From a virus (Duplodnaviria; Caudoviricetes), in IMG/VR virus record IMGVR_UViG_3300029288_000063, positions 96,001 to 160,000 of that record: 64,000 bases of DNA, one strand, 5' to 3'. A model generated the notes under the pieces. The model saw only the letters and a program-made list of their open reading frames with translations, had not been told where the DNA came from and did no database searches. Positions within the stretch are counted from its first letter, which is position 1; each line of letters starts with the position of its first letter. Both the position numbers and the translations under genes were made by a program. Shown piece after piece: positions 2,677 to 59,074 of the stretch.

Positions 2677-3822
2677 ATGAAGATGGAAAAGCGTGTACGT
2701 CTTACAGCCCGTCGTCGCAGTGCCTCGGATGACATTCCGTATCCGGGAACGGTGAATCAGGAAGACCGCAAGTTTGTTGAACGTGACAAGTATGACACGT
2801 TCGAACAGACCATCAACCATGAGCTGCCGGATATGCGCACTGAGTGGCGCAACGATGCTCGTGACGAAATCGGTTTCCCGATTGCCGAAGACCATACCGA
2901 AATCACGGGTACGAAGGATGGGGGTATGACCGTCGCCAGCGTGCGTCAAGCTGCCAGCAAGGCTGTCAAGCTCTCTATGTTGCTGTTGGGCAACAAGGTC
3001 CCGGAGAAAATGATTGAGGGGCAGGCGAAGGATTTCATGCTTCTCGGTTCTGCCGGTCTTGACCGTGCCCTTTCCCGCTTCGCCAAGACCGAGACTTTGT
3101 ATGCTCGCAAGGCGGAAGATGAGGAGGAAGACGAGGAAGAGACTGTCGAAGCTAAGAAGAGTGCTGACGAAGCTCCTGCCGAGGAAAAGAAGGAAGAAAC
3201 CACAGCCAAGAAGTCTGCCGACGAAACGCCTGCCGAGGAGAAGAAGGAAGAAACCACGGCCAAGAAGGGCTCGGACGAGGAAGAGACCACGGCTGAGGAA
3301 GAAGCCCCGAAGGCGAAGAAGGGTGCTGATGAAGCCCCTGCCGCCGAAGAGAAGAAGGAAGAAGCCCCGAAGGCGAAGAAGGGTGCCGACGAGGAAGAGA
3401 CCAAGGCTGATGACGAAGCTCCTGCCGAGGAAACCAAGGCGAAGAAGGGTGCCGAGGAAGACGAGGAAGAGACTGTCGAAGCCAAGAAGGGTGCTGATGA
3501 GGAAGACGACGAGTCCAAGGTTGCCGAGTTGGATATCGAACTTTCTGCCGCAGAAGAGGAAGACACAGAGGAAGATGAGAAATCTGCATCTATTCTGTCC
3601 TCTCTCTATGAAGAGGTGAAGAAGCAGGAAGCTGCTCGTCGCGGTAAGACCTCTGAAGATGATACCGAAGAAGAGGTTGTTGAATCCAAGAAGAGTGCTT
3701 CTGTAAAAGCCCGTGGTGCCCAGAAGCTTGGTGGTCAGCCGCGTATCGCCAGCGACATGTCTGTGAAGGACATCTCTGAGATTTGGGGAGATGTTCCGGA
3801 TGTCAGTGGCGTGTTTAACTGA
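2677..3822 (+). CDS. capsid scaffolding-like protein with AKK(G/S)ADE repeats
   Basis: Low-complexity E/K/A repeats; just upstream of decoration and MCP genes. Confidence 0.6.
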   Translation: MKMEKRVRLTARRRSASDDIPYPGTVNQEDRKFVERDKYDTFEQTINHELPDMRTEWRNDARDEIGFPIAEDHTEITGTKDGGMTVASVRQAASKAVKLSMLLLGNKVPEKMIEGQAKDFMLLGSAGLDRALSRFAKTETLYARKAEDEEEDEEETVEAKKSADEAPAEEKKEETTAKKSADETPAEEKKEETTAKKGSDEEETTAEEEAPKAKKGADEAPAAEEKKEEAPKAKKGADEEETKADDEAPAEETKAKKGAEEDEEETVEAKKGADEEDDESKVAELDIELSAAEEEDTEEDEKSASILSSLYEEVKKQEAARRGKTSEDDTEEEVVESKKSASVKARGAQKLGGQPRIASDMSVKDISEIWGDVPDVSGVFN

Positions 3823-5523: not shown

Positions 5524-7512
5524 ATGGGGACGCAAACGCACAAGAATCATGGGTTGAATAAAGATATGGTGGAGCAGTTATATCTTCGAGACGGGTTGAG
5601 TGATTCGGAGATTGGTTCGAGGTTTGGGTTGACTGGTGAGGGTGTTGCGTACTTCAGAAGAAAGTACGGCATCAAAACGATTTCTCAGTCTGATAGGATA
5701 TCTATCAGGGCAAGAAAGATCGGACTGATGGAGCTTTCTGTGGTTTCTGATGATGAGTTGATTCGGTTATATGATAAGCATGGGATGGTTACTCTTGGGA
5801 GGATGTTTGGGTGCAGCAAAATTCCAATCCGAGAAAAACTGCGCCGTCTAGGGGTTTGCATAAAAACGAAGCAAGATAGGACGGTAAGCGGGCATCCGGA
5901 CAGCCTGTCCCTGATGCAGCAGGAGGTGTTGATTGGGTCGCTGCTTGGAGATGGATGCCTCGTTGTGAACAACCTCGGGGATGCTGCCCATTTCCAAGAG
6001 ATGCATTCGGCAGCTCAGAGGCGATATCTGGAGTGGAAGCACGATGTGTTCATGCCTTTCTCCAAAAGGATTCACAAAGAGGATAAGGTGTTGGACGATG
6101 GGAGGGAATCGAAGGGTTTTGGTTTTAAGACATGTGTTCATCCGTTGTTTGTTCGGTTCTATGATATGTTTTATGGGGGAGCCAAAAAGCATCTTCCAGA
6201 TGGCTTGATGAGGAATATCTCGCCACTGAGTTTAGCGGTCTGGTATATGGACGATGGCTGTCTTTCTGATCAAAATAAGGACGGAGTATTCACGATAGCC
6301 TCTGGGTTTTGTAAAGAATCTGTTGAGGTTATTGCTGATTCGCTTAATGATCGGTTTCAGTTTGATATTGAAGTTCGCGAAGTAGATAGTGTGTCTGTTC
6401 TTGTTTTTCATAACAAGCAGAAATTCTTCGATGTTATTGGTAGGCACATTGTTCCGTCGATGGCATATAAGGTTCCTTTGAGTTTGAGGTTTTCCATGCC
6501 TCATATTCGGAATCCGAAGTTGTATGGGTTGCCAAACAAACTTTCTCCTGCGGAGGTTGCGAATCCATCTGAAGGACTGTTGGATGATCTTGTTGAGTTT
6601 TGGCAGGTTGCAGGGTTTCCTTTTCCAAGCGTTCCGAAGAAAGACAAGAGGTTGAGCGAGATAGAAGCGGTCAGAAATTCCAAGATAGAGCTTTCAGAAG
6701 TAGTTGGGTCTGGATTCTCTTCTGGCTGTGGGTTGTGTCTGTCGTTCTTCGAGAATGTTTGGTCGGTGAAACGGCATGGGCAAAAAAGCCCAGAGGATGT
6801 GTTTTACGATAAGGCTCTCTTGAGGCATGCTATCCGTGACTGCTTGAAGCATCGTGGTGGGTGTCGGGAGTCGGAATTGCGTTCTGAGCTTCGAACGTTT
6901 GGAGGGGTCCAAACGTTTCGTCCGGTTGTCGCAAGGGCAATTTATGATCGCTATTGCCCGGTTGGCGGGCGAGTTCTTGATCCCTGTTCTGGTTGGGGAG
7001 GGCGATTGCTTGGGTTCTATGCGTCCGTTGTGTCGGAGTATATCGGGGTTGATGCGAATCCAGATACCGTGAAGGGGCTGAAACATATGCGGTGTTTGTT
7101 GGGTCGGGATGTTGCGGGTAAGTCTGTTGATATTAAATATGCCGCTTTTGAGGACTTGAAACTTGATGGATCATTTGATGTCGTCTTTACGTCGCCTCCG
7201 TATTTCTGTAAAGAGTTGTACGGGGACGATGAGTTTCAGAGTTATGTCCGGTATGGCAAATACAACGATTGGCGGGATGGATTTTTGAAGCCTCTTGTTG
7301 AGAAGTCCGTTTCCGTTTTGAAGCGTGGAGGTTTTTTGATACTCAATGTTGCGGATGTTCGGGTTGGTGGTGATGTTTTCCCACTTGTCGAAGACACACG
7401 CTCGCTGATGAAGTCTGTTATAGGGCTGTTTGCGGAACACAACATGGAGTTTCTGAGTCCATATGGCGGGAAGACAAGGTTTGAACCAATTCTCGTTGGT
7501 CGGAAGGATTGA
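5524..7512 (+). CDS. HTH + LAGLIDADG endonuclease + DNA amino-methyltransferase fusion
   Basis: LIGSLLGDG and LAVWYMDDG motifs; C-terminal VLDPCSGWGG (motif I) and TSPPY (motif IV). Confidence 0.8.
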   Translation: MGTQTHKNHGLNKDMVEQLYLRDGLSDSEIGSRFGLTGEGVAYFRRKYGIKTISQSDRISIRARKIGLMELSVVSDDELIRLYDKHGMVTLGRMFGCSKIPIREKLRRLGVCIKTKQDRTVSGHPDSLSLMQQEVLIGSLLGDGCLVVNNLGDAAHFQEMHSAAQRRYLEWKHDVFMPFSKRIHKEDKVLDDGRESKGFGFKTCVHPLFVRFYDMFYGGAKKHLPDGLMRNISPLSLAVWYMDDGCLSDQNKDGVFTIASGFCKESVEVIADSLNDRFQFDIEVREVDSVSVLVFHNKQKFFDVIGRHIVPSMAYKVPLSLRFSMPHIRNPKLYGLPNKLSPAEVANPSEGLLDDLVEFWQVAGFPFPSVPKKDKRLSEIEAVRNSKIELSEVVGSGFSSGCGLCLSFFENVWSVKRHGQKSPEDVFYDKALLRHAIRDCLKHRGGCRESELRSELRTFGGVQTFRPVVARAIYDRYCPVGGRVLDPCSGWGGRLLGFYASVVSEYIGVDANPDTVKGLKHMRCLLGRDVAGKSVDIKYAAFEDLKLDGSFDVVFTSPPYFCKELYGDDEFQSYVRYGKYNDWRDGFLKPLVEKSVSVLKRGGFLILNVADVRVGGDVFPLVEDTRSLMKSVIGLFAEHNMEFLSPYGGKTRFEPILVGRKD

Positions 7513-8037: not shown

Positions 8038-8691
8038 ATGGTTGACAATAATGTTGCTTTCGAGTTGATTCGTTTGGCAAAGACGCTTGTCGGTTTAGAT
8101 GTTGATGTGTATAAGAAGAAGGCTTTTATTATTGCTGACCAAATGTCTAAAAAGTCTAAAGTTATTCGTGTCAAGTCTGAGGTTGAGTTGAAGTCTGGTA
8201 AGGTAGTAATAGTGTTCAAAGCCAGCCTTATATTAAAAGACATATATATAAACACTGACGAAGGTAGTGGTTTGATTTTTACCATGTCTCGCGAATATAT
8301 GGAAGATTTAAGGAATTTGGTAAAAATTCACATCGGTTTGTTTGATGTTGATTTCTCGTCCGGTTCTGTTATGAGTTATGGTCGTTTGGCTCGGGTAGTT
8401 GTTCCTGTTGAGCGTTCCGTTGATAAGGTTCAGTATTTTAAACTATTTGATGATGGTGTTTTGTCAAGTAAGATTGAAAGTGTTTTAACACCTCCCAGTA
8501 GCTTACCAGTTGATTGGGATTTTGTTTTGATTCAATATTCAGATGGTTCTATGGCTTCTGGGCGTTCTTTTTCTAATGGTTGGCGTATGAATAATGAAAA
8601 CAACCTCAACCTGAAGTTTGTTGGTGAGAGTAAAAAGTTTTCATATGATGCTCGTCCTTTTAGCAAGTTCAAAAAACTTTTAACCAAGTGA
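8038..8691 (+). CDS. hypothetical, putative internal virion protein
   Basis: VAFELIRLAK N-terminal motif. Confidence 0.55.
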   Translation: MVDNNVAFELIRLAKTLVGLDVDVYKKKAFIIADQMSKKSKVIRVKSEVELKSGKVVIVFKASLILKDIYINTDEGSGLIFTMSREYMEDLRNLVKIHIGLFDVDFSSGSVMSYGRLARVVVPVERSVDKVQYFKLFDDGVLSSKIESVLTPPSSLPVDWDFVLIQYSDGSMASGRSFSNGWRMNNENNLNLKFVGESKKFSYDARPFSKFKKLLTK

Positions 8692-23251: not shown

Positions 23252-23473
23252 ATGATTGACAACCACACTGTTGGTTCTGTGAAACGCATTTCGCCGGTGT
23301 TGAATAGGAATGCTATTGTAAAGAGTGGTGGAGTCCTCCAACAGTCGGAGGAGGTTGGTTATGTTGTAAGGGAGAAAATCGGCGTTGGAGTATATAACCC
23401 ATCCGCGTTAAATCTGTTCTTAAAAAAAGAGTCTGAAGGGGCGTTGCCTGTTTATGATGAAGACCCGAATTGA
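23252..23473 (+). CDS. mini-protein made of two MCP-like segments
   Basis: GAGG RBS; local similarity to 4501-5361. Confidence 0.6.
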   Translation: MIDNHTVGSVKRISPVLNRNAIVKSGGVLQQSEEVGYVVREKIGVGVYNPSALNLFLKKESEGALPVYDEDPN

Positions 23474-25641
23474 AATTCTGTTATGAACTTGATATAGGAA
23501 AGCTGAATATGATCAGGAGAGTTCTTTTTTCGATAGTAGTGGTTGCTGCTATTTGCACTGTTGTTTTAGTGACGATATCAATGACTGTCGTCAAAAATGG
23601 ATTCTCTTCTGTAGATGAGGATCGGGTGATTGAATCCTCACACCTTGTTCGTTCTATCGTTCAAAGAGAATTGCTCGGTTTGGCCAGCACTGTTGGGGAT
23701 TGGTCACGGTGGGATGATGCTTGGGAGTATGTTAATCAAGACGGCAAAGATAGGTCTTTTGTCGAACAAAATATTGATCTCGCTTCACTATTACAGTTGC
23801 GCGTGTTTTATGTCATGTTTCTTGGACGGGATGGACATCCTATTTCCGAATTTGTTGTTCGTGACGGGGACATCTATGAGGTTCCGAATTCCGAGCTGTC
23901 CTTGGCGTCTATAGATGGTTTTCAATCGGCATCTGAACGGTGCATGCGCGGCGAGGTTGTGCAGGGTTTGTCTTGGATAGGAGACAAGATGTCCTTGGTG
24001 GCAATGTCGTCTATCTCTAAGTCGGACGGTTCGTGTGTCGGAAACGGTATGTTGGTTTTCTGTCGTGATGCGTCCGGTATGGTTTCGGAAATTAACAAGA
24101 CGTTTGAGTCGTTTTCGATATCCGGTGATTGTTCAAGCGAGATAATGAACGACCTCGTTATCAATACCTCCGATTCGAGCGTGTCTGGGACTTTTCTTGT
24201 TCCCAGTGTTGAGGGAGGGAAAAACTATCTCGCAAGCCTATCTGTTCCGAGCTTTTCCGAGTTGCAGGGCAACCGCATTATCCTTGTTTTCGTTTTTGCG
24301 AGTATAGGGTTTGTTTTCGTTGTTTCGATTGCGCTGTGGAAGGTTGTTGATAGGATGGTATTATCGAGGCTTTCTGTCACAATGTCCGCTGTCAAAGAGA
24401 TTGGTCGTTCTGCCGATGTGACAAAGAAGCTGCCCGGTGGTGAATGTTCTGATGAGTTTGGCGTTTTCATTCACAACTTGAACGATATGCTTGAATCTAT
24501 TCGCGTGTCAGAAGAAAAGACAAAAGAATCAGAAAATGCTTTAAAACGTTCTGAGCGAGTAACACTTCTTGGCAAATTCGCGGAGGGTATTGCGCACGAC
24601 CTGAATAACCTTTTGGCAATTATTAAGGGCTATGCGGACTCGTTGAAGTTTGCCGGTTCACTTTCTGAATCTCTCGTGCTGTGTGACAACATAAGTTCCA
24701 CAGTCGGAGAATGTACGGCTTTGATTGGTAAGATTTTGTCGTTTTCGAGGCGTGGTAATATCAACTTTGTGCCGGTTGATCTGCACCCATTGTTGGGTGA
24801 TATATGTTCGATGTTTCATTACGCCATAGAGAAAAAGAGTGTATGTTTTGAATCGGTTATGGGGGCGGAGAACAGTGTGGTTCATGGGAACAAGTCTGAA
24901 ATTCAAAATGCCATATTGAGTCTGTTGGTTAATGCCCGAGAGGCTGTTTCTGATAATGGTCATATCTTTATCAAATCAAGAAACGTTATCGACCCTGACG
25001 GTTTGTCTTCTGGTGAATATGTGGAGGTGGAGGTGAGTGATGACGGTGTTGGAATTCCTCCGTCGATTATGAAAAATCTTTTTGTTCCATTTCAAACAAC
25101 AAAGGAATATGGAAAGGGTCTTGGACTTTCTTTTGTTCATGGGACGGCGGAAAGACACAAAGGAAGGGTAAGTGTTTCCAGTATTCCCGGTAAAACATCT
25201 GTGCTGCTCTTGATTCCGTGCTCTGAAAAAAAGGCTAGTGTTCCGGAGAAAAACAGCGTTATGAGACATAAGACTCCGTGTGTTGTGCATGTCGAAGATG
25301 AGGCGGCCATTCGTGAAATCGTTAAGTTGCAGCTTGAGGATGATGGGTTTTGTGTGAAATCTTTTGCGCATGGTGATGGTGCGATTAGTTATGTTCGTGA
25401 ACACAAGCAAGATGTTGACTTTGCGATTCTCGACTTCGCGGTTCCTCCTGTGGATGGTGTTTACATCTTTCATGAGATGAGAAAGATTATACCAACTCTT
25501 CCAGTTGCGTTTATGACTGGTTTTTGTGACGCTAGGGCTGAAGACTTGCGTGCCGAGGGGGCGGTCGGTGTTTTCGAGAAACCAATCAATTTCAAGTCAG
25601 TTCTTAGTCTTCTGAACGATATACTTGGAAAGCGTGGGTAG
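23470..25641 (+). CDS. hybrid sensor histidine kinase (CHASE4-HAMP-HisKA-HATPase-REC)
   Basis: DWSRWDD, AHDLNN, N/G1/F/G2 boxes, receiver EDE..D..KP. Confidence 0.9.
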   Translation: MKFCYELDIGKLNMIRRVLFSIVVVAAICTVVLVTISMTVVKNGFSSVDEDRVIESSHLVRSIVQRELLGLASTVGDWSRWDDAWEYVNQDGKDRSFVEQNIDLASLLQLRVFYVMFLGRDGHPISEFVVRDGDIYEVPNSELSLASIDGFQSASERCMRGEVVQGLSWIGDKMSLVAMSSISKSDGSCVGNGMLVFCRDASGMVSEINKTFESFSISGDCSSEIMNDLVINTSDSSVSGTFLVPSVEGGKNYLASLSVPSFSELQGNRIILVFVFASIGFVFVVSIALWKVVDRMVLSRLSVTMSAVKEIGRSADVTKKLPGGECSDEFGVFIHNLNDMLESIRVSEEKTKESENALKRSERVTLLGKFAEGIAHDLNNLLAIIKGYADSLKFAGSLSESLVLCDNISSTVGECTALIGKILSFSRRGNINFVPVDLHPLLGDICSMFHYAIEKKSVCFESVMGAENSVVHGNKSEIQNAILSLLVNAREAVSDNGHIFIKSRNVIDPDGLSSGEYVEVEVSDDGVGIPPSIMKNLFVPFQTTKEYGKGLGLSFVHGTAERHKGRVSVSSIPGKTSVLLLIPCSEKKASVPEKNSVMRHKTPCVVHVEDEAAIREIVKLQLEDDGFCVKSFAHGDGAISYVREHKQDVDFAILDFAVPPVDGVYIFHEMRKIIPTLPVAFMTGFCDARAEDLRAEGAVGVFEKPINFKSVLSLLNDILGKRG

Positions 25642-25706
25642 CTCAATGGCAGAGCGAGGGCTTCTAAAGCCCTGCGTTATGGGTTCGAGTCCCATCCTAC
25701 GCACCA
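25632..25706 (+). tRNA. amber suppressor tRNA (CTA)
   Basis: Canonical cloverleaf, loop TT-CTA-AA, CCA. Confidence 0.88.
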
Positions 25707-28267: not shown

Positions 28268-28278
28268 TAGTTTTTTTT

Positions 28279-28433
28279 GCAGCACTCTTCAGTATGGAGT
28301 TACTTCCTTTCAAACCGAAAATGTGGGTTCGATTCCCACACCTGATGCCGCAACACACGACGGTTCGCCGTCCAGTCGGGTTCGTCTAATGGTAGGACTC
28401 GGGCGCAAGTCTCCATGCGTTCTTTGGTGCTGT
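28279..28433 (+). ncRNA. YrlA-like Y RNA, copy 6
   Basis: Conserved frame plus permuted T/D arms. Confidence 0.7.
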
Positions 28434-28441
28434 TTTTTCAT

Positions 28442-28516
28442 GTCCCGCTCGTCTAGCGGCTAGGACGACAGCTTTTCAAGCTGTAAACCGGAGTTCGATT
28501 CTCCGGCGGGATGCCA
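28442..28516 (+). tRNA. tRNA-Glu(TTC)
   Basis: Cloverleaf, CCA. Confidence 0.9.
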
Positions 28517-28523
28517 AATTCAT

Positions 28524-28610
28524 GCGGGTATGCTGGAATGGCAGACAGGTTGCGTTGAGAGCGCAATGGACGAATTGTCCGTGAGGGTTCAAGTCCCTCT
28601 ATCCGCACCA
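28524..28610 (+). tRNA. tRNA-Leu(GAG)
   Basis: Long variable arm, CCA. Confidence 0.9.
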
Positions 28611-28615
28611 AATTT

Positions 28616-28814
28616 ACCAGTCGTCTGAGGAAGCTCGGGACTGCACCGCGAAAACGGAGGAGGATTGTATAATCTGATTGGACTCCGGAGGCAGCAACCC
28701 CAAATAGGCCCGGAGCGGGAGCGCGGCGTGTTGAAGGGCGGGTTGGGGGCTTAGACCAATGCACGGTTGAAAAACAGAATCCCGGCTACGTAGAACTGTG
28801 CGCGGTCGACTGGT
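28616..28814 (+). ncRNA. rnpB: miniature circularly permuted RNase P RNA (catalytic domain)
   Basis: CR-I GAGGAAGCTCGGGA and CR-V ACAGAATCCCGGCTA form P4; P2, P3, P5, P6, P7, P15 and P16 can be assigned. Confidence 0.8.
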
Positions 28815-28820
28815 TATTAT

Positions 28821-28897
28821 GTCTCGGTAGGCGAATGGTTGAAGCCGTCACCCCTTCAAGGTGAAAATTACGGGTTCGAATCCCGTCCGAGATACCA
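28821..28897 (+). tRNA. tRNA-Glu(TTC), divergent (C33)
   Basis: Cloverleaf, CCA. Confidence 0.8.
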
Positions 28898-28985
28898 CAA
28901 GAAAAGGGAAAGCCCCCCTATGGGAACCATGAAGGCCAAATGGGTTCTCGCAGGCTTGACAACCGGAGAGTACGGTGCCAATGAT

Positions 28986-39419: not shown

Positions 39420-40586
39420 ATGGCTTCGAGTATTGTTGTGCCTATTGTGCGGATTGAAAAAGTCCGTTCCCACCCAAACGCTGACAAGTTGGAATTGTGC
39501 AATGTTCTTGGGTTTCAAATGTGTATTCCCAAGGGCAAACACAAGTCTGGCGACATCTGTGTGTATGTTCCTGCCGATTCTTTGGTTCCGAACGATTGGG
39601 CTGAAAAGTGGGGAGTCCTCCCTTATTTGAAAGGTCAGGAAAAGAACCGTGTCGGAAGAGTCCGGCTACGTGGTGAGCCGTCGTTTGGATTGATTGTTGA
39701 TATGTCGTGGCTGCCGGGAAGCGATAAGCCATACAACGTTGGGGACAATGTTGCAGACTGCTTCGGCATAAAGAAATACGAGCATCCGGTAAAGGCCGTT
39801 TCGTCGGATGCCGCAGCGTATGACTCTGACATTGACCCGTATGTCTCTCGTTATACCGACATTGAGAATGGACGTGTTTTCACCGAGGTATTCCGCGAAG
39901 GCGAAGAGGTTGTCGCCACAGAAAAGATTCACGGGACGAACTGTAAGGTTGGGTTCGTTCGTGTTGGCGATGAGTGGATTCCTGTTGCGGGTTCTATGGG
40001 TGTCCGGCGTAAGCGTCCTATGAGGCCGACATGGACTCCACAGTCATGGCTTGAGAGACTCTACGTGCGGCTTTTTGGCATGAAATACGTCGAGGCTGAC
40101 TTTGACGACCGCGAAATTCGTGGGAGCACATATTGGTCGCCATTTGCGCTTCCGTCTGTGCGCGTCCTGTTGATGCGTTTGTGTGATTGTGCCGAAAGGT
40201 CTGTTTTGCTGTATGGTGAGGTGTTTGGCCCGTGTGTTCAAAACCTCCATTATGGTGTCACGGCAGTTGAAGGTTTTCGCTTTCGTGCGTTTGATATTTG
40301 TATAGACGGGAAATTCCTCAACTGGGTCGAGTTCTCCGACTTGTGTGGGGAGGTTGGAGTTCCTGTTGTGCCTGTGGTCTATCGTGGCGCGTTTAGTTTT
40401 GAAGACATAAAGAAGGCTGCCGATGGACGTTCGACCTTGCCGGGGGCAGACAACATTCGAGAGGGAGTTGTCGTGAAGCCGGTCGTTGAAAGGGTCGACT
40501 CGAAGGTTGGTCGTGCGGTGTTGAAGTTTATCGGGACGGAATATGAGTTGTCCAAAAAGGACGAAGATGACTGTAAGGACGTTTGA
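39420..40586 (+). CDS. ATP-dependent RNA ligase (DRB0094 family)
   Basis: N-terminal HPNADKLE tRNA-binding-like domain; TEKIHGTN, YGE, AFD, REGVVVK. Confidence 0.88.
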   Translation: MASSIVVPIVRIEKVRSHPNADKLELCNVLGFQMCIPKGKHKSGDICVYVPADSLVPNDWAEKWGVLPYLKGQEKNRVGRVRLRGEPSFGLIVDMSWLPGSDKPYNVGDNVADCFGIKKYEHPVKAVSSDAAAYDSDIDPYVSRYTDIENGRVFTEVFREGEEVVATEKIHGTNCKVGFVRVGDEWIPVAGSMGVRRKRPMRPTWTPQSWLERLYVRLFGMKYVEADFDDREIRGSTYWSPFALPSVRVLLMRLCDCAERSVLLYGEVFGPCVQNLHYGVTAVEGFRFRAFDICIDGKFLNWVEFSDLCGEVGVPVVPVVYRGAFSFEDIKKAADGRSTLPGADNIREGVVVKPVVERVDSKVGRAVLKFIGTEYELSKKDEDDCKDV

Positions 40587-50933: not shown

Positions 50934-51179
50934 GTGGCGTATACAATTGAAGACATGTCGATTGAACTGTCCAAACTCGGTTATCCTGCGAATGCAAAAA
51001 AGGCGGCAATAGAGGTGACAAGTCGTCTTATGTTGAATTTGAGAGAGGACGAACGAGGTATAGTGTTTTGGCAGTTGGTTCATCGGTTCGCCCTGATGTT
51101 GTCGCCTTGGTGGCGGGAGTTTTTCAGGTCGGACGTTTGCTTCGGCACCATTGTGGGGGCTTGGAATGAAAAAGTCTGA
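50934..51179 (+). CDS. small hypothetical protein
   Basis: Coupled ORF. Confidence 0.45.
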   Translation: MAYTIEDMSIELSKLGYPANAKKAAIEVTSRLMLNLREDERGIVFWQLVHRFALMLSPWWREFFRSDVCFGTIVGAWNEKV

Positions 51180-52806
51180 TGTCGCTGGTAGTAAGGGAAA
51201 GACGCTTACGTCTTTGCGCTCGAAATGTTTGGGATGCCTGAAGTGTTCAATTGGTGGCTGCGATATTGGTGGTCACATTTCTAATGTTTTTTCGAACATG
51301 AACATGAAGGCGGGAGTGATGGTTATTGGGCAAAATCCCGGCCATGTTGAGGTCGAACGCGGTTTGCCGTTTGTTGGTCCGTCTGGTGAGTTTTTTGACC
51401 GTGCGATATCGGAAGTTCTCGGTGTTGGTCGTGATGCGTTTTACATCACCAATGTCGTTAAATGTCTCCGCTACAACACCCGAGTATTGCTTGGTGATGG
51501 TTCAACAAAGACTATCGCTCAGCTTGTTCGTGAAAAGTATGACGGGACTGTTGTGTCTGTTGGAAAGAACGGCAATCTGGAACAGAAGAAAGTAATTGGG
51601 TGGTATAAAACTCCAATTGCTGGTCGTAGGATGTTCAAGTTGTCTTACTCTAACGCCAAGGGTAATCCTTGTGGAAGCGTTGGACCAACTTTGACAGAAG
51701 ACCACCCGGTCAAGACGAGGTTTGGGTATAAGGATGTCTGTGAACTTAAAGAGGACGACGAGATTGCTATCGGAGAGGTGGCACCAAATTCATACTTGAA
51801 GGAGTTTTTGTGCGGAACATTGTTGGGGGACGGATGTGTTGTAAAGAATCACTTGGAGATTACGCACTCCAAAAAGGATTCAGGCTATATTGATATGAAA
51901 AAGCGTTGTTTGTCTGGCTTTGGTGTTGTTTCCGAGGATATTGAGATTGATTTGAACGGCAAGAAGCATTTCGCTACAAGGTTGAGGAGTCATGCTTCGC
52001 GTTATTTTTGTGAAGAGCGGTCTGTTTGGTATCAGAACGGCAAGAAAAGTGTCATGCATTTGGCGGGACTTTCCGACCTTGCTTTGGCTATTTGGTATCA
52101 AGACGATGGAAGCGTTGCGTCGCACAGGAAAAACTCACGGGTTGATTTGGCAACGAATGGGTTTTCTTCTGCCGATGTCGACCATTTGTGCTCGCTGCTT
52201 TGTGGTCGCGGTATTCCTGCAAAGAGAATTTATAGTGCTGGGTGGAGGGTGTCTATCGGTGTTGAAGGTGCCGATGCTTTTTATCGTGCTATCGCAAGGT
52301 ATGTTCACCCATCAATGAGAAGGAAGTTGCCCGAGAAGTATTGTTCTGTGAATTTTGTCGATGTTTCGCGCCGTTGTGGAGTTGAGTTGTATTGGGCTAA
52401 AAACCCAATTATCAAAGAGGTTCAGGTGCCAGAAAAGAGTGTTTATTGCCTTGATGTTGAAGGTAATCACAATTTTGTCGTGAATGGTGGTGTTGTGGTG
52501 CATAACTGCTTTACGAATCAAAACCGTTCGCCACACGACAATGAGATTCAAAACTGTCGCGAGCTTTTGGATGAGGAAATTCGTGTTGTAAATCCGTCCT
52601 TGATTGTCACGCTTGGCGGTCCGTCACTCAAGGCTGTTGCCGGGGTGAGTGGTATTACGAAGTATCGTGGTTCTTTTATCACGTCGTTGCGTTATGCTGT
52701 GAAGGTTTTGCCGTTATGGCACCCGTCACCGTTGAACATGAACAGCTCAGAAAAGCGGGAGCAGTTTTTTCAAGACCTACTTCTTGTGAAGCCTTTTTTG
52801 GAATAA
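51166..52806 (+). CDS. family-4 uracil-DNA glycosylase with intein
   Basis: CxxC, GQNPG..E..G.PFVG, TNVVK|C, HPSP. Confidence 0.88.
   Translation: MKKSDVAGSKGKTLTSLRSKCLGCLKCSIGGCDIGGHISNVFSNMNMKAGVMVIGQNPGHVEVERGLPFVGPSGEFFDRAISEVLGVGRDAFYITNVVKCLRYNTRVLLGDGSTKTIAQLVREKYDGTVVSVGKNGNLEQKKVIGWYKTPIAGRRMFKLSYSNAKGNPCGSVGPTLTEDHPVKTRFGYKDVCELKEDDEIAIGEVAPNSYLKEFLCGTLLGDGCVVKNHLEITHSKKDSGYIDMKKRCLSGFGVVSEDIEIDLNGKKHFATRLRSHASRYFCEERSVWYQNGKKSVMHLAGLSDLALAIWYQDDGSVASHRKNSRVDLATNGFSSADVDHLCSLLCGRGIPAKRIYSAGWRVSIGVEGADAFYRAIARYVHPSMRRKLPEKYCSVNFVDVSRRCGVELYWAKNPIIKEVQVPEKSVYCLDVEGNHNFVVNGGVVVHNCFTNQNRSPHDNEIQNCRELLDEEIRVVNPSLIVTLGGPSLKAVAGVSGITKYRGSFITSLRYAVKVLPLWHPSPLNMNSSEKREQFFQDLLLVKPFLE
51463..52506 (+). 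mobile_element. intein with LAGLIDADG endonuclease in UDG
   Basis: CL..T, TEDH, LLGDG/YQDDG, VYCL.V..HNF..HN|C. Confidence 0.9.
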
Positions 52807-56820: not shown

Positions 56821-56905
56821 TTTTCTATGGGGTGGGAGGTAACGCCTCCCACCCTGTGGTTCCGTCTTTTTCTTTGGTTGTCACATTTTGCTCAGGAGGG
56901 ATTGC

Positions 56906-59074
56906 ATGGCGATGGACAAGAAACGCGAAGACCGTATTCGCAAGATTTGCGAAGGCGTTCAAAAAGCGTTTGGTGGTGGTAACACTACCGATGGGAAGAT
57001 TATCACCTATTTGGGTGATGAGGAGCGTGAACCGCTGGAGCGGTTTTCGTCTGGGTGTTTCGAGCTTGATGAGGCGTTGGGTGGTGGTTGGCCGCGTGGT
57101 CGTATGATTGAGATTTACGGACCAGAATCTGGCGGAAAATGTCACGCCAAAGGAACCAAGATTTTGATGTTCGACGGATACCTCAAGAACGTAGAAGACA
57201 TCGAGGTTGGTGACTGGGTGATGGGACCGGATTCTACGCCTCGTCAGGTGCAAGCGTTGGCGCGTGGTTCTGAAATGATGTATCGCGTGACGCCACGTAA
57301 GGGACTGGACAACAGTTTTGTTGTAAACGAAAACCACGTTTTGTGCCTGAAGAACACCGAGATTGGTTCGAAGTTTGGTGAGATTGTCGACATTTCCTTG
57401 AAGGACTACATGGGGAAAAGTGACAACTTCCGTTACTACAACAAGCTGTTTCAGGTTCCGGTCGAATGGTCAGAGAAAGAGTTACCTGTAGACCCTTATT
57501 TCTTGGGTCTGTGGCTTGGTGATGGTAGTTCTGACTGTGTTCGTGTTTATACACAAGATGAGGAAGTTGTGTCGGCTCTGGAAGAGTACGGCGAAAGGAT
57601 TGGACACTCTCTTTCTGTGGTTGATGACGAGTCCGGAAGGTGTCCGGGTTACTCTCTTGTTGTTGGCAAAGGGAAGTACCAATCCGAGTTTTGCTTACAG
57701 GGTGCCTTGCGTTCTTTGGGTGTTTTGAACAACAAACACATCCCTCATATCTTCAAAACAGGAAGCCGCACACAGCGTTTGGAATTGTTGGCGGGGTTGC
57801 TGGATTCTGACGGGTATAAGGGTGCGTCAAAGTTGGTGTTTTGCAACACCAATAAAGTCCTTGCTGAAGATGTTCTATTTGTTGCTCGTTCGCTTGGTTT
57901 CTTCTGTAACCTCAAAGAGTACACGGCAAGGCTTGGCGAGTTTTCGTGTCCGGCTTACAAGGTTTACATTAACGGTGATTGTTCGGTTGTCCCGTTGCGT
58001 GTTTCCCGTAAACGTCCGTCGGAACGCGAGTCGAATAGGGACCCGTTGGTGTCGTCGTTTGAAGTTGAGTCGGTTGGTGTTGGAGAGTTTTTTGGTTTTA
58101 TTCTGGATGGTGACCATCGGTATCTGATGGGGAATTTTATCGTCCAGCACAACACCACCCTGTGTTATCATGCGGTTGCAGAGTTCCAGAAGAAATATCC
58201 GGACGAGGATATCGCGTGGGTGGATTCGGAATACGCGTTGGACCCTGAATATGCCGAGAAGATTGGCGTAGACATTTCGACGATTATCCACCACGAACCC
58301 ACAGACGGCAATCAGGCGTTTGAGGTAATTCGGCACCTGATCAAGAGCGGGGTCAAGCTGATTATTGTTGACTCTGTTGCCGCACTGTCGCCGAAAGAAG
58401 AAATTGAGGCGTCGATGGAAGACACTCAGCGTCTTGGTTCGGCAGCACGCATGATGTCGCAAGCGTTGCGTGTCTTGGTTGGCGAGGTTGGTCGTGCAGG
58501 TGTAACGATTCTCTTTACCAACCAAGTCCGTGATAAGCCGGGAGTGATGTGGGGAGAGAAAACCACTACCCCCGGTGGTCGTGCGTTGCGGTTCTACGCT
58601 TCGATTCGTGTGGATATTCGCGGCATTGGTCAGGAGAAGGATGGTGAGTTGGTCACATCCATGCACACGAAGGCGTTGTGCAAGAAGAACAAGACCGCGC
58701 CCCCACTCCGTGTTGCCAATTTCATCATTTCGTTTGGCGTTGGCGTTGACCGGATTGCCGGTATCTTCGACAAGTCTGTTGAGCGGAAGGTGATTGAAAA
58801 GGCCGGGGCTTGGTTCTCGTTTGACGGGAACCGTCTTGGTCAGGGTCGTTCCGCGTCCCTTACGCAGTTGCGTGAGAACGAGGAGCTGTTGGCTGAGGTG
58901 GAAAAGAAGCTTCTTGCCGCCCCGGCTGTTGTTGTCGAGAAGAAGTCGTCGATGAAGAAAGCCCGTGGGAAGAAGTCCTCTACGGAAGATGAGGACACAG
59001 AGCCGTCACCGGAACCCGATTTGGAAGTTGGTGGGGATGGTGCGGCGGAAGGAACCTCTGTCGATGACGCATGA
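56906..59074 (+). CDS. recA: RecA recombinase with intein
   Basis: LGGGWPRGR.IEIYGPESGGK|TT, VDSVAAL, NQVR, GGRALRFYAS. Confidence 0.95.
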   Translation: MAMDKKREDRIRKICEGVQKAFGGGNTTDGKIITYLGDEEREPLERFSSGCFELDEALGGGWPRGRMIEIYGPESGGKCHAKGTKILMFDGYLKNVEDIEVGDWVMGPDSTPRQVQALARGSEMMYRVTPRKGLDNSFVVNENHVLCLKNTEIGSKFGEIVDISLKDYMGKSDNFRYYNKLFQVPVEWSEKELPVDPYFLGLWLGDGSSDCVRVYTQDEEVVSALEEYGERIGHSLSVVDDESGRCPGYSLVVGKGKYQSEFCLQGALRSLGVLNNKHIPHIFKTGSRTQRLELLAGLLDSDGYKGASKLVFCNTNKVLAEDVLFVARSLGFFCNLKEYTARLGEFSCPAYKVYINGDCSVVPLRVSRKRPSERESNRDPLVSSFEVESVGVGEFFGFILDGDHRYLMGNFIVQHNTTLCYHAVAEFQKKYPDEDIAWVDSEYALDPEYAEKIGVDISTIIHHEPTDGNQAFEVIRHLIKSGVKLIIVDSVAALSPKEEIEASMEDTQRLGSAARMMSQALRVLVGEVGRAGVTILFTNQVRDKPGVMWGEKTTTPGGRALRFYASIRVDIRGIGQEKDGELVTSMHTKALCKKNKTAPPLRVANFIISFGVGVDRIAGIFDKSVERKVIEKAGAWFSFDGNRLGQGRSASLTQLRENEELLAEVEKKLLAAPAVVVEKKSSMKKARGKKSSTEDEDTEPSPEPDLEVGGDGAAEGTSVDDA
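57140..58153 (+). mobile_element. intein with LAGLIDADG endonuclease in the RecA P-loop
   Basis: CHAKGT..NENH..LGLWLGDG..LAGLLDSDG..QHN|T. Confidence 0.92.

Follow-up and report, generated by a model that had tools for sequence, protein, structure and literature searches.

RNase P RNA, which trims the 5′ leaders of precursor tRNAs, is one of the two universal ribozymes. The bacterial type A form (rnpB, E. coli M1 RNA; Rfam RF00010) is usually about 350–400 nt long, with its 5′ and 3′ ends paired in P1 and its elements in the order P1-P2-P3-CR-I. The catalytic core contains P4, formed by CR-I and CR-V and carrying a bulged uridine, together with CR-IV, J5/15, J15/16, a P6 pseudoknot and an L15 GGU that binds the 3′-CCA of the substrate, while a separate specificity domain (P7–P14, CR-II/III) reads the tRNA T-loop. 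The E. coli C-domain alone cleaves pre-tRNA, though less efficiently (PMC5839562). A natural form of about 200 nt that has lost most of the specificity domain, type T, is found in Pyrobaculum and other Thermoproteaceae (PMC3579882; PMC13462272); it is archaeal, works with archaeal proteins, and has the standard 5′-to-3′ order with P1 at the ends. Circularly permuted RNase P RNAs have been engineered (Harris et al. 1994, EMBO J 13:3953, listed in the references of PMC3579882), with new termini placed inside a peripheral helix and the native ends joined, P1 being closed by a loop. Such laboratory constructs reportedly retain activity. Natural permuted genes, in which the order is rotated and a normally internal loop carries the ends, are represented in other RNA families by two-piece tmRNA (RF01851, RF04321) and permuted tRNA genes (PMC3978253). 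Literature searches found no description of a natural RNase P RNA with permuted order, nor of a phage-encoded RNase P RNA.

An RNase P RNA core within a phage tRNA array

The sequence analysed here (the window) is a stretch of 64,000 nt, bases 96001–160000 of a 253-kb IMG/VR virus record (IMGVR_UViG_3300029288_000063; Duplodnaviria, Caudoviricetes) estimated to be 75% complete. It carries 55 tRNA genes and a tmRNA, all on the + strand. Between tRNA-Leu(GAG) (28524–28610), which has an encoded CCA, and tRNA-Glu(UUC) (28821–28897), both identified by ARAGORN and Rfam, lies a 210-nt gap (28611–28820, +). A preliminary description of this site, made from the sequence alone, proposed that 28616–28814 specifies a circularly permuted, catalytic-domain-only RNase P RNA. 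The observation was confirmed, as every helix it listed is present and pairs at the positions it gave.

P4 is formed by 28632–28640 and 28780–28787, with one bulged U at 28635 (the ninth base of GAGGAAGCU), the same register as the bulged U of E. coli M1 RNA. Its 5′ strand is preceded by GAGGAA (CR-I/J3-4; 28627–28640 together). P5 (CTGC, 28641–44, with GCAG, 28691–94) encloses the P6 5′ strand and a P7-like stub (CGGAG, 28655–59, with CTCCG, 28683–87) that bears a hairpin (28663–66 with 28671–74). This 43-nt stub with its hairpin (28655–87) is all that lies between the two P5 strands in place of the specificity domain. P6 pairs CCGCG (28646–50) with CGCGG (28722–26). The segment 28695–28749 contains J5/15 (CAA), P15 (CCCC, 28698–701, with GGGG, 28745–48), J15/16 (AAAUAG), P16 (GCCC, 28708–11, with GGGC, 28736–39) and L15 (GGGUU, 28740–44), which carries the GGU. 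CR-IV (CTTAGACCAATG, 28750–61) follows P15 directly, so that P18 is absent, and aligns to the consensus GCuuAGucGAAUGC of RF00373. The universal order of CR-IV (AGNNNAAU), P2 3′ strand and CR-V (ACAGAA..GGCUA) is retained, with the P2 strand TGCACGGTT at 28760–68 and CR-V (ACAGAATCCCGGCTA) at 28774–28788.

No Rfam family reaches its gathering score in this gap. When matches were ranked by E-value, RNaseP_arch (RF00373) aligned to 28609–28798 at 31.7 bits (E 1.2e-7; gathering score 84), including GAGGAA, AGCAAccCCAAAUAG, GGU, GCUUAGaCcAAUGC and AACAGAA..GGCUA. RF00010 gave 26.1 bits (E 2.3e-7; gathering score 100), and this was the only RNase P-like hit in the 253-kb record. The scores are therefore far below threshold. 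As only the best model of the clan is reported by cmscan, no score was shown for type T (RF02357); the context is a phage with bacterial-type tmRNA and tRNAs, and the RNA is regarded as of bacterial type.

A family of miniature RNase P RNAs in large phages

A blastn search of GenBank phages with the RNA found no match, and a first pattern scan of viral sequences returned only three chance coding matches. Further pattern scans of IMG/VR for the conserved motifs returned first 42 and then 100 stretches. After removal of duplicates and two chance matches, about 87 distinct miniature RNase P RNAs remained (individual loci are numbered L001 onwards), mostly on contigs of 50–490 kb; L164, L098, L128 and L001–L003 were chance or coding matches. 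A further dozen or so sit on MAG contigs, and some on metagenome contigs. Near-identical miniature RNase P RNAs of standard order were seen on contigs binned as DPANN archaea (Aenigmarchaeota, 'uncultured archaeon') and Saccharibacteria (L167, L173, L174, L183 and L190, e.g., L190:3459–3613), which could belong to phages binned into MAGs, or could be the cells' own reduced RNase P RNA.

A covariance model built from the present sequence alone found 84 relatives at 24–77 bits, the best being L137, L067 and L144. Conversely, an HMM built from 75 standard relatives scored this RNA at 78.6 bits (E 4e-26). In an alignment of 85 sequences (72 distinct rows), the core helices pair in 94.9% of cells, with a covariation score of 0.594 against at most 0.067 when partners were slid by 1–3 columns, and none of 500 shuffles reached the observed value. 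Pairing was 98.9% for P4 (five of eight pairs changed on both sides), 100% for P5, 96.5% for P7, 92.8% for its hairpin, 93.8% for P15, 91.3% for P16 and 84.3% for P6, all pairs of P15, P16 and P6 (five in P6) covarying. P4 and P6 are pseudoknots that were not in the model, so their support does not come from model fitting. Every core helix is thus supported as first drawn.

Of 85 members, 56 have a tRNA within 1.5 kb, 33 have a same-strand tRNA ending within 150 nt upstream, and 35 have one starting within 100 nt downstream. The minimal form, which the preliminary description treated as unique, is in fact shared by a large phage family for which no published description was found; only the wiring is unique, among about 100 relatives.

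Rotated order of the P2 and P3 strands

In all RNase P RNAs, the strand between CR-IV and CR-V is the 3′ strand of P2. In 83 of 87 relatives its partner (6–10 bp, anchored on the U of AAUG by a U·G pair) lies upstream of GAGGAA, in a fixed pattern: P1 5′ strand, (C)GA, P2 strand ending in CG, then a P3 hairpin that begins with C and closes on the first G of GAGGAA. One member, L077 (10956–11159, –), has a core close to that of L050, but its 5′ module is replaced by a 62-nt AT-rich segment between a weak 6-bp P2 strand and GAGGAA, which may be an expanded P3 or an insertion.

In the present RNA only 16 nt separate the CCA of tRNA-Leu from GAGGAA, and no anchored partner of 7 bp or more lies nearer than 1.6 kb upstream, and the idea that the missing P2 strand lies upstream of the flanking tRNAs was rejected on this ground. 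Instead, a 9-bp partner (AACTGTGCG, 28794–802), anchored on the U of AAUG, is found 5 nt after CR-V. By duplex energy (–12.6 kcal/mol downstream against –7.9 upstream) this is the only clear downstream case among 90 sequences. The strand ends in CG and is followed at once by CGGTCGACTGGT (28803–14), which begins with C, as in nearly all of 83 relatives, and pairs at 11 of 12 positions with the leader ACCAGTCGTCTG (28616–27). The closing C-G pair uses the first G of GAGGAA, exactly as in relatives such as L144 and L067. This extends to 12 positions the terminal stem recognised initially (ACCAGTCG, 28616–23, with CGACTGGT, 28807–14). The 5′ and 3′ overhangs beyond it, up to the flanking tRNAs, are 5 and 6 nt.

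A short linker (ACGTAG, 28788–28793) occupies the place where relatives have both strands of P1. Relatives read GGNTA-(CG/TG)-P1 3′ strand, and P1 5′ strand-(C)GA-P2. Here, GGCTA is followed by CG, the commonest dinucleotide at this position in the family (26 of 83), and then by TAGAA, resembling the (C)GA/GGA/GAA that precedes P2 in relatives. The lengths are also consistent: P2 (9 bp) and P3 (11–12 bp) lie within the family ranges of 6–10 and 3–22 bp, while the leader is 16 nt, against at least 25 nt in any relative next to a tRNA, and the trailer is 32 nt, against a typical 13–20 nt.

When the 33-nt trailer was shuffled with its composition preserved, a P2 partner of at least 9 bp arose in 1.2% of trials and an 11-of-12 P3 strand in 0.5%, but the two together, adjacent and in the right order, in only 4 of 200,000. 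The MFE fold recovers the terminal stem and P2, although its energy is no better than that of shuffled sequences (z –0.78). Bases 28803–07 could instead pair with GACC of CR-IV, and such a pairing (28804–07) appears in the MFE fold, but the family pattern favours the P3 extension. A sequence-only HMM cannot see the difference in order, scoring the re-permuted sequence at 79.6 bits and the native one at 78.6.

The arrangement is not an assembly artefact, as Logan contigs from two other studies, from a near-identical phage and without informative variants, cover 28512–28698 (four differences) and 28702–28851 (no differences). Both unusual junctions therefore exist outside the source assembly, though at a depth of only about 2.

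No second permuted copy was found in the IMG/VR, JGI metagenome contig and species genome scans, which may not have included records near the window's own, the metagenome and species-genome scans yielding only standard-order copies. The permuted P2 and P3 pairings therefore rest on one sequence plus family comparison, and have no covariation of their own.

Genomic context and related phages

Of 53 phage tRNAs, 49 encode CCA, which fits recognition through the L15 GGU. A strong terminator-like hairpin (27897–918; seven G-C pairs followed by a T run) is followed by a promoter-like site (TTGACA-16-AAGAAT, 27964–91) just before tRNA-Tyr (27997), and no terminator-like site on the + strand lies between 27997 and 28897. 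This weakly suggests one transcript covering tRNA-Tyr through tRNA-Glu, and may mark the start of a sub-operon that contains the RNase P RNA. No RnpA gene was found in the (75% complete) record. Two other ORF-free spacers between tRNAs, 28268–28441 and 28898–28985, have no Rfam hit. The first was initially described as Y-RNA-like, while the possibility that the second is a remnant of a tandem RNase P copy was rejected, as its alignment score was no better than for shuffles (377 of 500 reach it).

Relatives of the phage found through its DnaB-like helicase (L047–L049) gave no covariance model hit in their records. A search with the neighbouring 235-aa ORF identified two contigs, of 344 kb and 50 kb, with a syntenic tRNA array lacking the RNA, the former examined over 29 kb of its tRNA region and the latter over a 12-kb locus (L063). 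In the 344-kb contig, the nearest available relative, the neighbouring ORF is 47% identical, the same histidine-kinase gene is present, and tRNA-Leu(GAG) is followed directly by another tRNA. There is no sign of long-term retention of the RNA. The tRNA array of this relative (L062) contains sub-threshold HDV-like ribozyme matches (8366–8449 and 6569–6641; RF00094 at 32 bits, RF02682 at 30 and 27 bits) that resemble the published theta ribozymes (PMC10879173). A suppressor-type tRNA with anticodon CUA (25632–25706 of the window; called tRNA-Pyl by ARAGORN) starts inside the last codons of a CHASE4 histidine kinase/response-regulator ORF (23470–25641), and the same pairing is kept in the relative (L062:1075–3204 and 3208–3281). 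Elsewhere in the window (51151–52806, 56888–59074 and 5524–7512), inteins or homing endonucleases interrupt core genes: the uracil-DNA glycosylase-like gene carries an intein with a LAGLIDADG domain, RecA carries a Hint/LAGLIDADG intein, and there is also a 662-aa LAGLIDADG protein.

Interpretation

The best explanation, held with moderate confidence, is a phage-encoded RNase P RNA of about half the usual size that lacks the specificity domain and whose gene is circularly permuted relative to the other members of its family that were examined. It retains the type A core features listed above, but is without P1, P18 and the specificity domain. In the simplest reading, that of the preliminary description, the P3 loop of a standard gene has been opened, and the 3′ end of P4 joined to the 5′ strand of P2 through a link of about 6 nt in place of P1. 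Whereas the engineered constructs close P1 with a loop, here a natural gene has P1 reduced to a linker; type T RNA has lost most of the same domain but keeps standard order.

What the sequence itself shows is the pairing of the two ends as P3 (a closed hairpin in relatives), the uninterrupted continuation of the 3′ strand of that stem into the P2 strand that pairs between CR-IV and CR-V, and the formation of P4 by CR-I and CR-V, whereas maturation, catalysis and function are inferred. In this view, the RNA would be transcribed with the neighbouring tRNAs and released by ordinary tRNA end-processing, its 5′ end set by 3′ maturation of tRNA-Leu and its 3′ end by RNase P cleavage at tRNA-Glu +1. 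The folded RNA, probably with the host's RnpA protein, would then remove 5′ leaders from the phage's own pre-tRNAs, recognising them through the encoded CCA and the acceptor stem rather than the T-loop. The interpretation first proposed was thus partly supported: the catalytic-domain-only identity is supported by model hits, family membership and core covariation, and the permutation, with ends in P3 and a short link replacing P1, is well supported within this one sequence, though unproven, by comparison with about 87 relatives of standard order, conserved junction sequences and the shuffle test, while the suggested roles in phage tRNA processing or as a decoy for RnpA remain inference.

Among the alternatives, all considered unlikely, the one that survives best is that this is a decaying remnant, a standard gene that lost its 5′ part (P1, P2 and P3 strands) when tRNA-Leu was placed next to it, the complementarity of the trailer being fortuitous and the RNA no longer functional. 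It is a singleton, the nearest relative phage lacks the gene, and chance downstream matches of 8 bp occur in about 5 of 87 relatives. However, all universally conserved core nucleotides are intact, as are the P4 register, P6 and P15/GGU, the contiguous P2 and P3 complementarity is rare in shuffles, and the junction bases follow the family pattern. The trailer is also about 12–19 nt longer than is typical, and the leader at least 9 nt shorter than any in the family, as expected if the strands moved rather than were lost.

Slightly less likely is that the RNA is folded and permuted but acts as a decoy or sponge, titrating host RnpA or binding pre-tRNAs to redirect host RNA processing during infection. 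The absence of an S-domain and of a phage RnpA would fit this, and the elements contacted by RnpA in bacterial holoenzymes (P2/P3, CR-IV/CR-V region) are all present. This reading cannot be excluded, but it does not explain why the catalytic-core nucleotides, the bulged U and the CCA-binding GGU are conserved across about 85 family members embedded among tRNA genes, as a pure protein sponge would not need them. Least likely is that only the gene is permuted, the 5′-phosphate and 3′-OH left by tRNA processing being held together by P3 and sealed across an 11-nt gap by the phage RNA ligase (39420–40586; OB-fold domain, 10.6 kb downstream) to give a circular RNA with a closed P3 loop, since direct evidence is lacking and the ligase is more simply explained as tRNA repair. 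In its favour, the ends lie side by side on the 12-position stem, with 5-nt and 6-nt overhangs that would make an 11-nt loop.

It remains possible, though tentative, that this is the first natural circularly permuted RNase P RNA, an active ribozyme with termini in P3 that does without both P1 and the whole specificity domain, matured entirely by the tRNA-processing machinery it belongs to and possibly sealed into a circle by the phage ligase. Permuted copies escape annotation by covariance models, which assume a fixed order; here, P2 and P1 score as unpaired. RNase P RNA is not known to depart in nature from its 5′-to-3′ order with the ends in P1. A natural copy with rotated order, no P1 and no specificity domain would show that the catalytic core tolerates such rewiring in nature and not only in laboratory constructs, and would define a very small working scaffold of about 200 nt. 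It would also give a second, independent handle on why large phages with many tRNA genes carry their own RNase P RNA.
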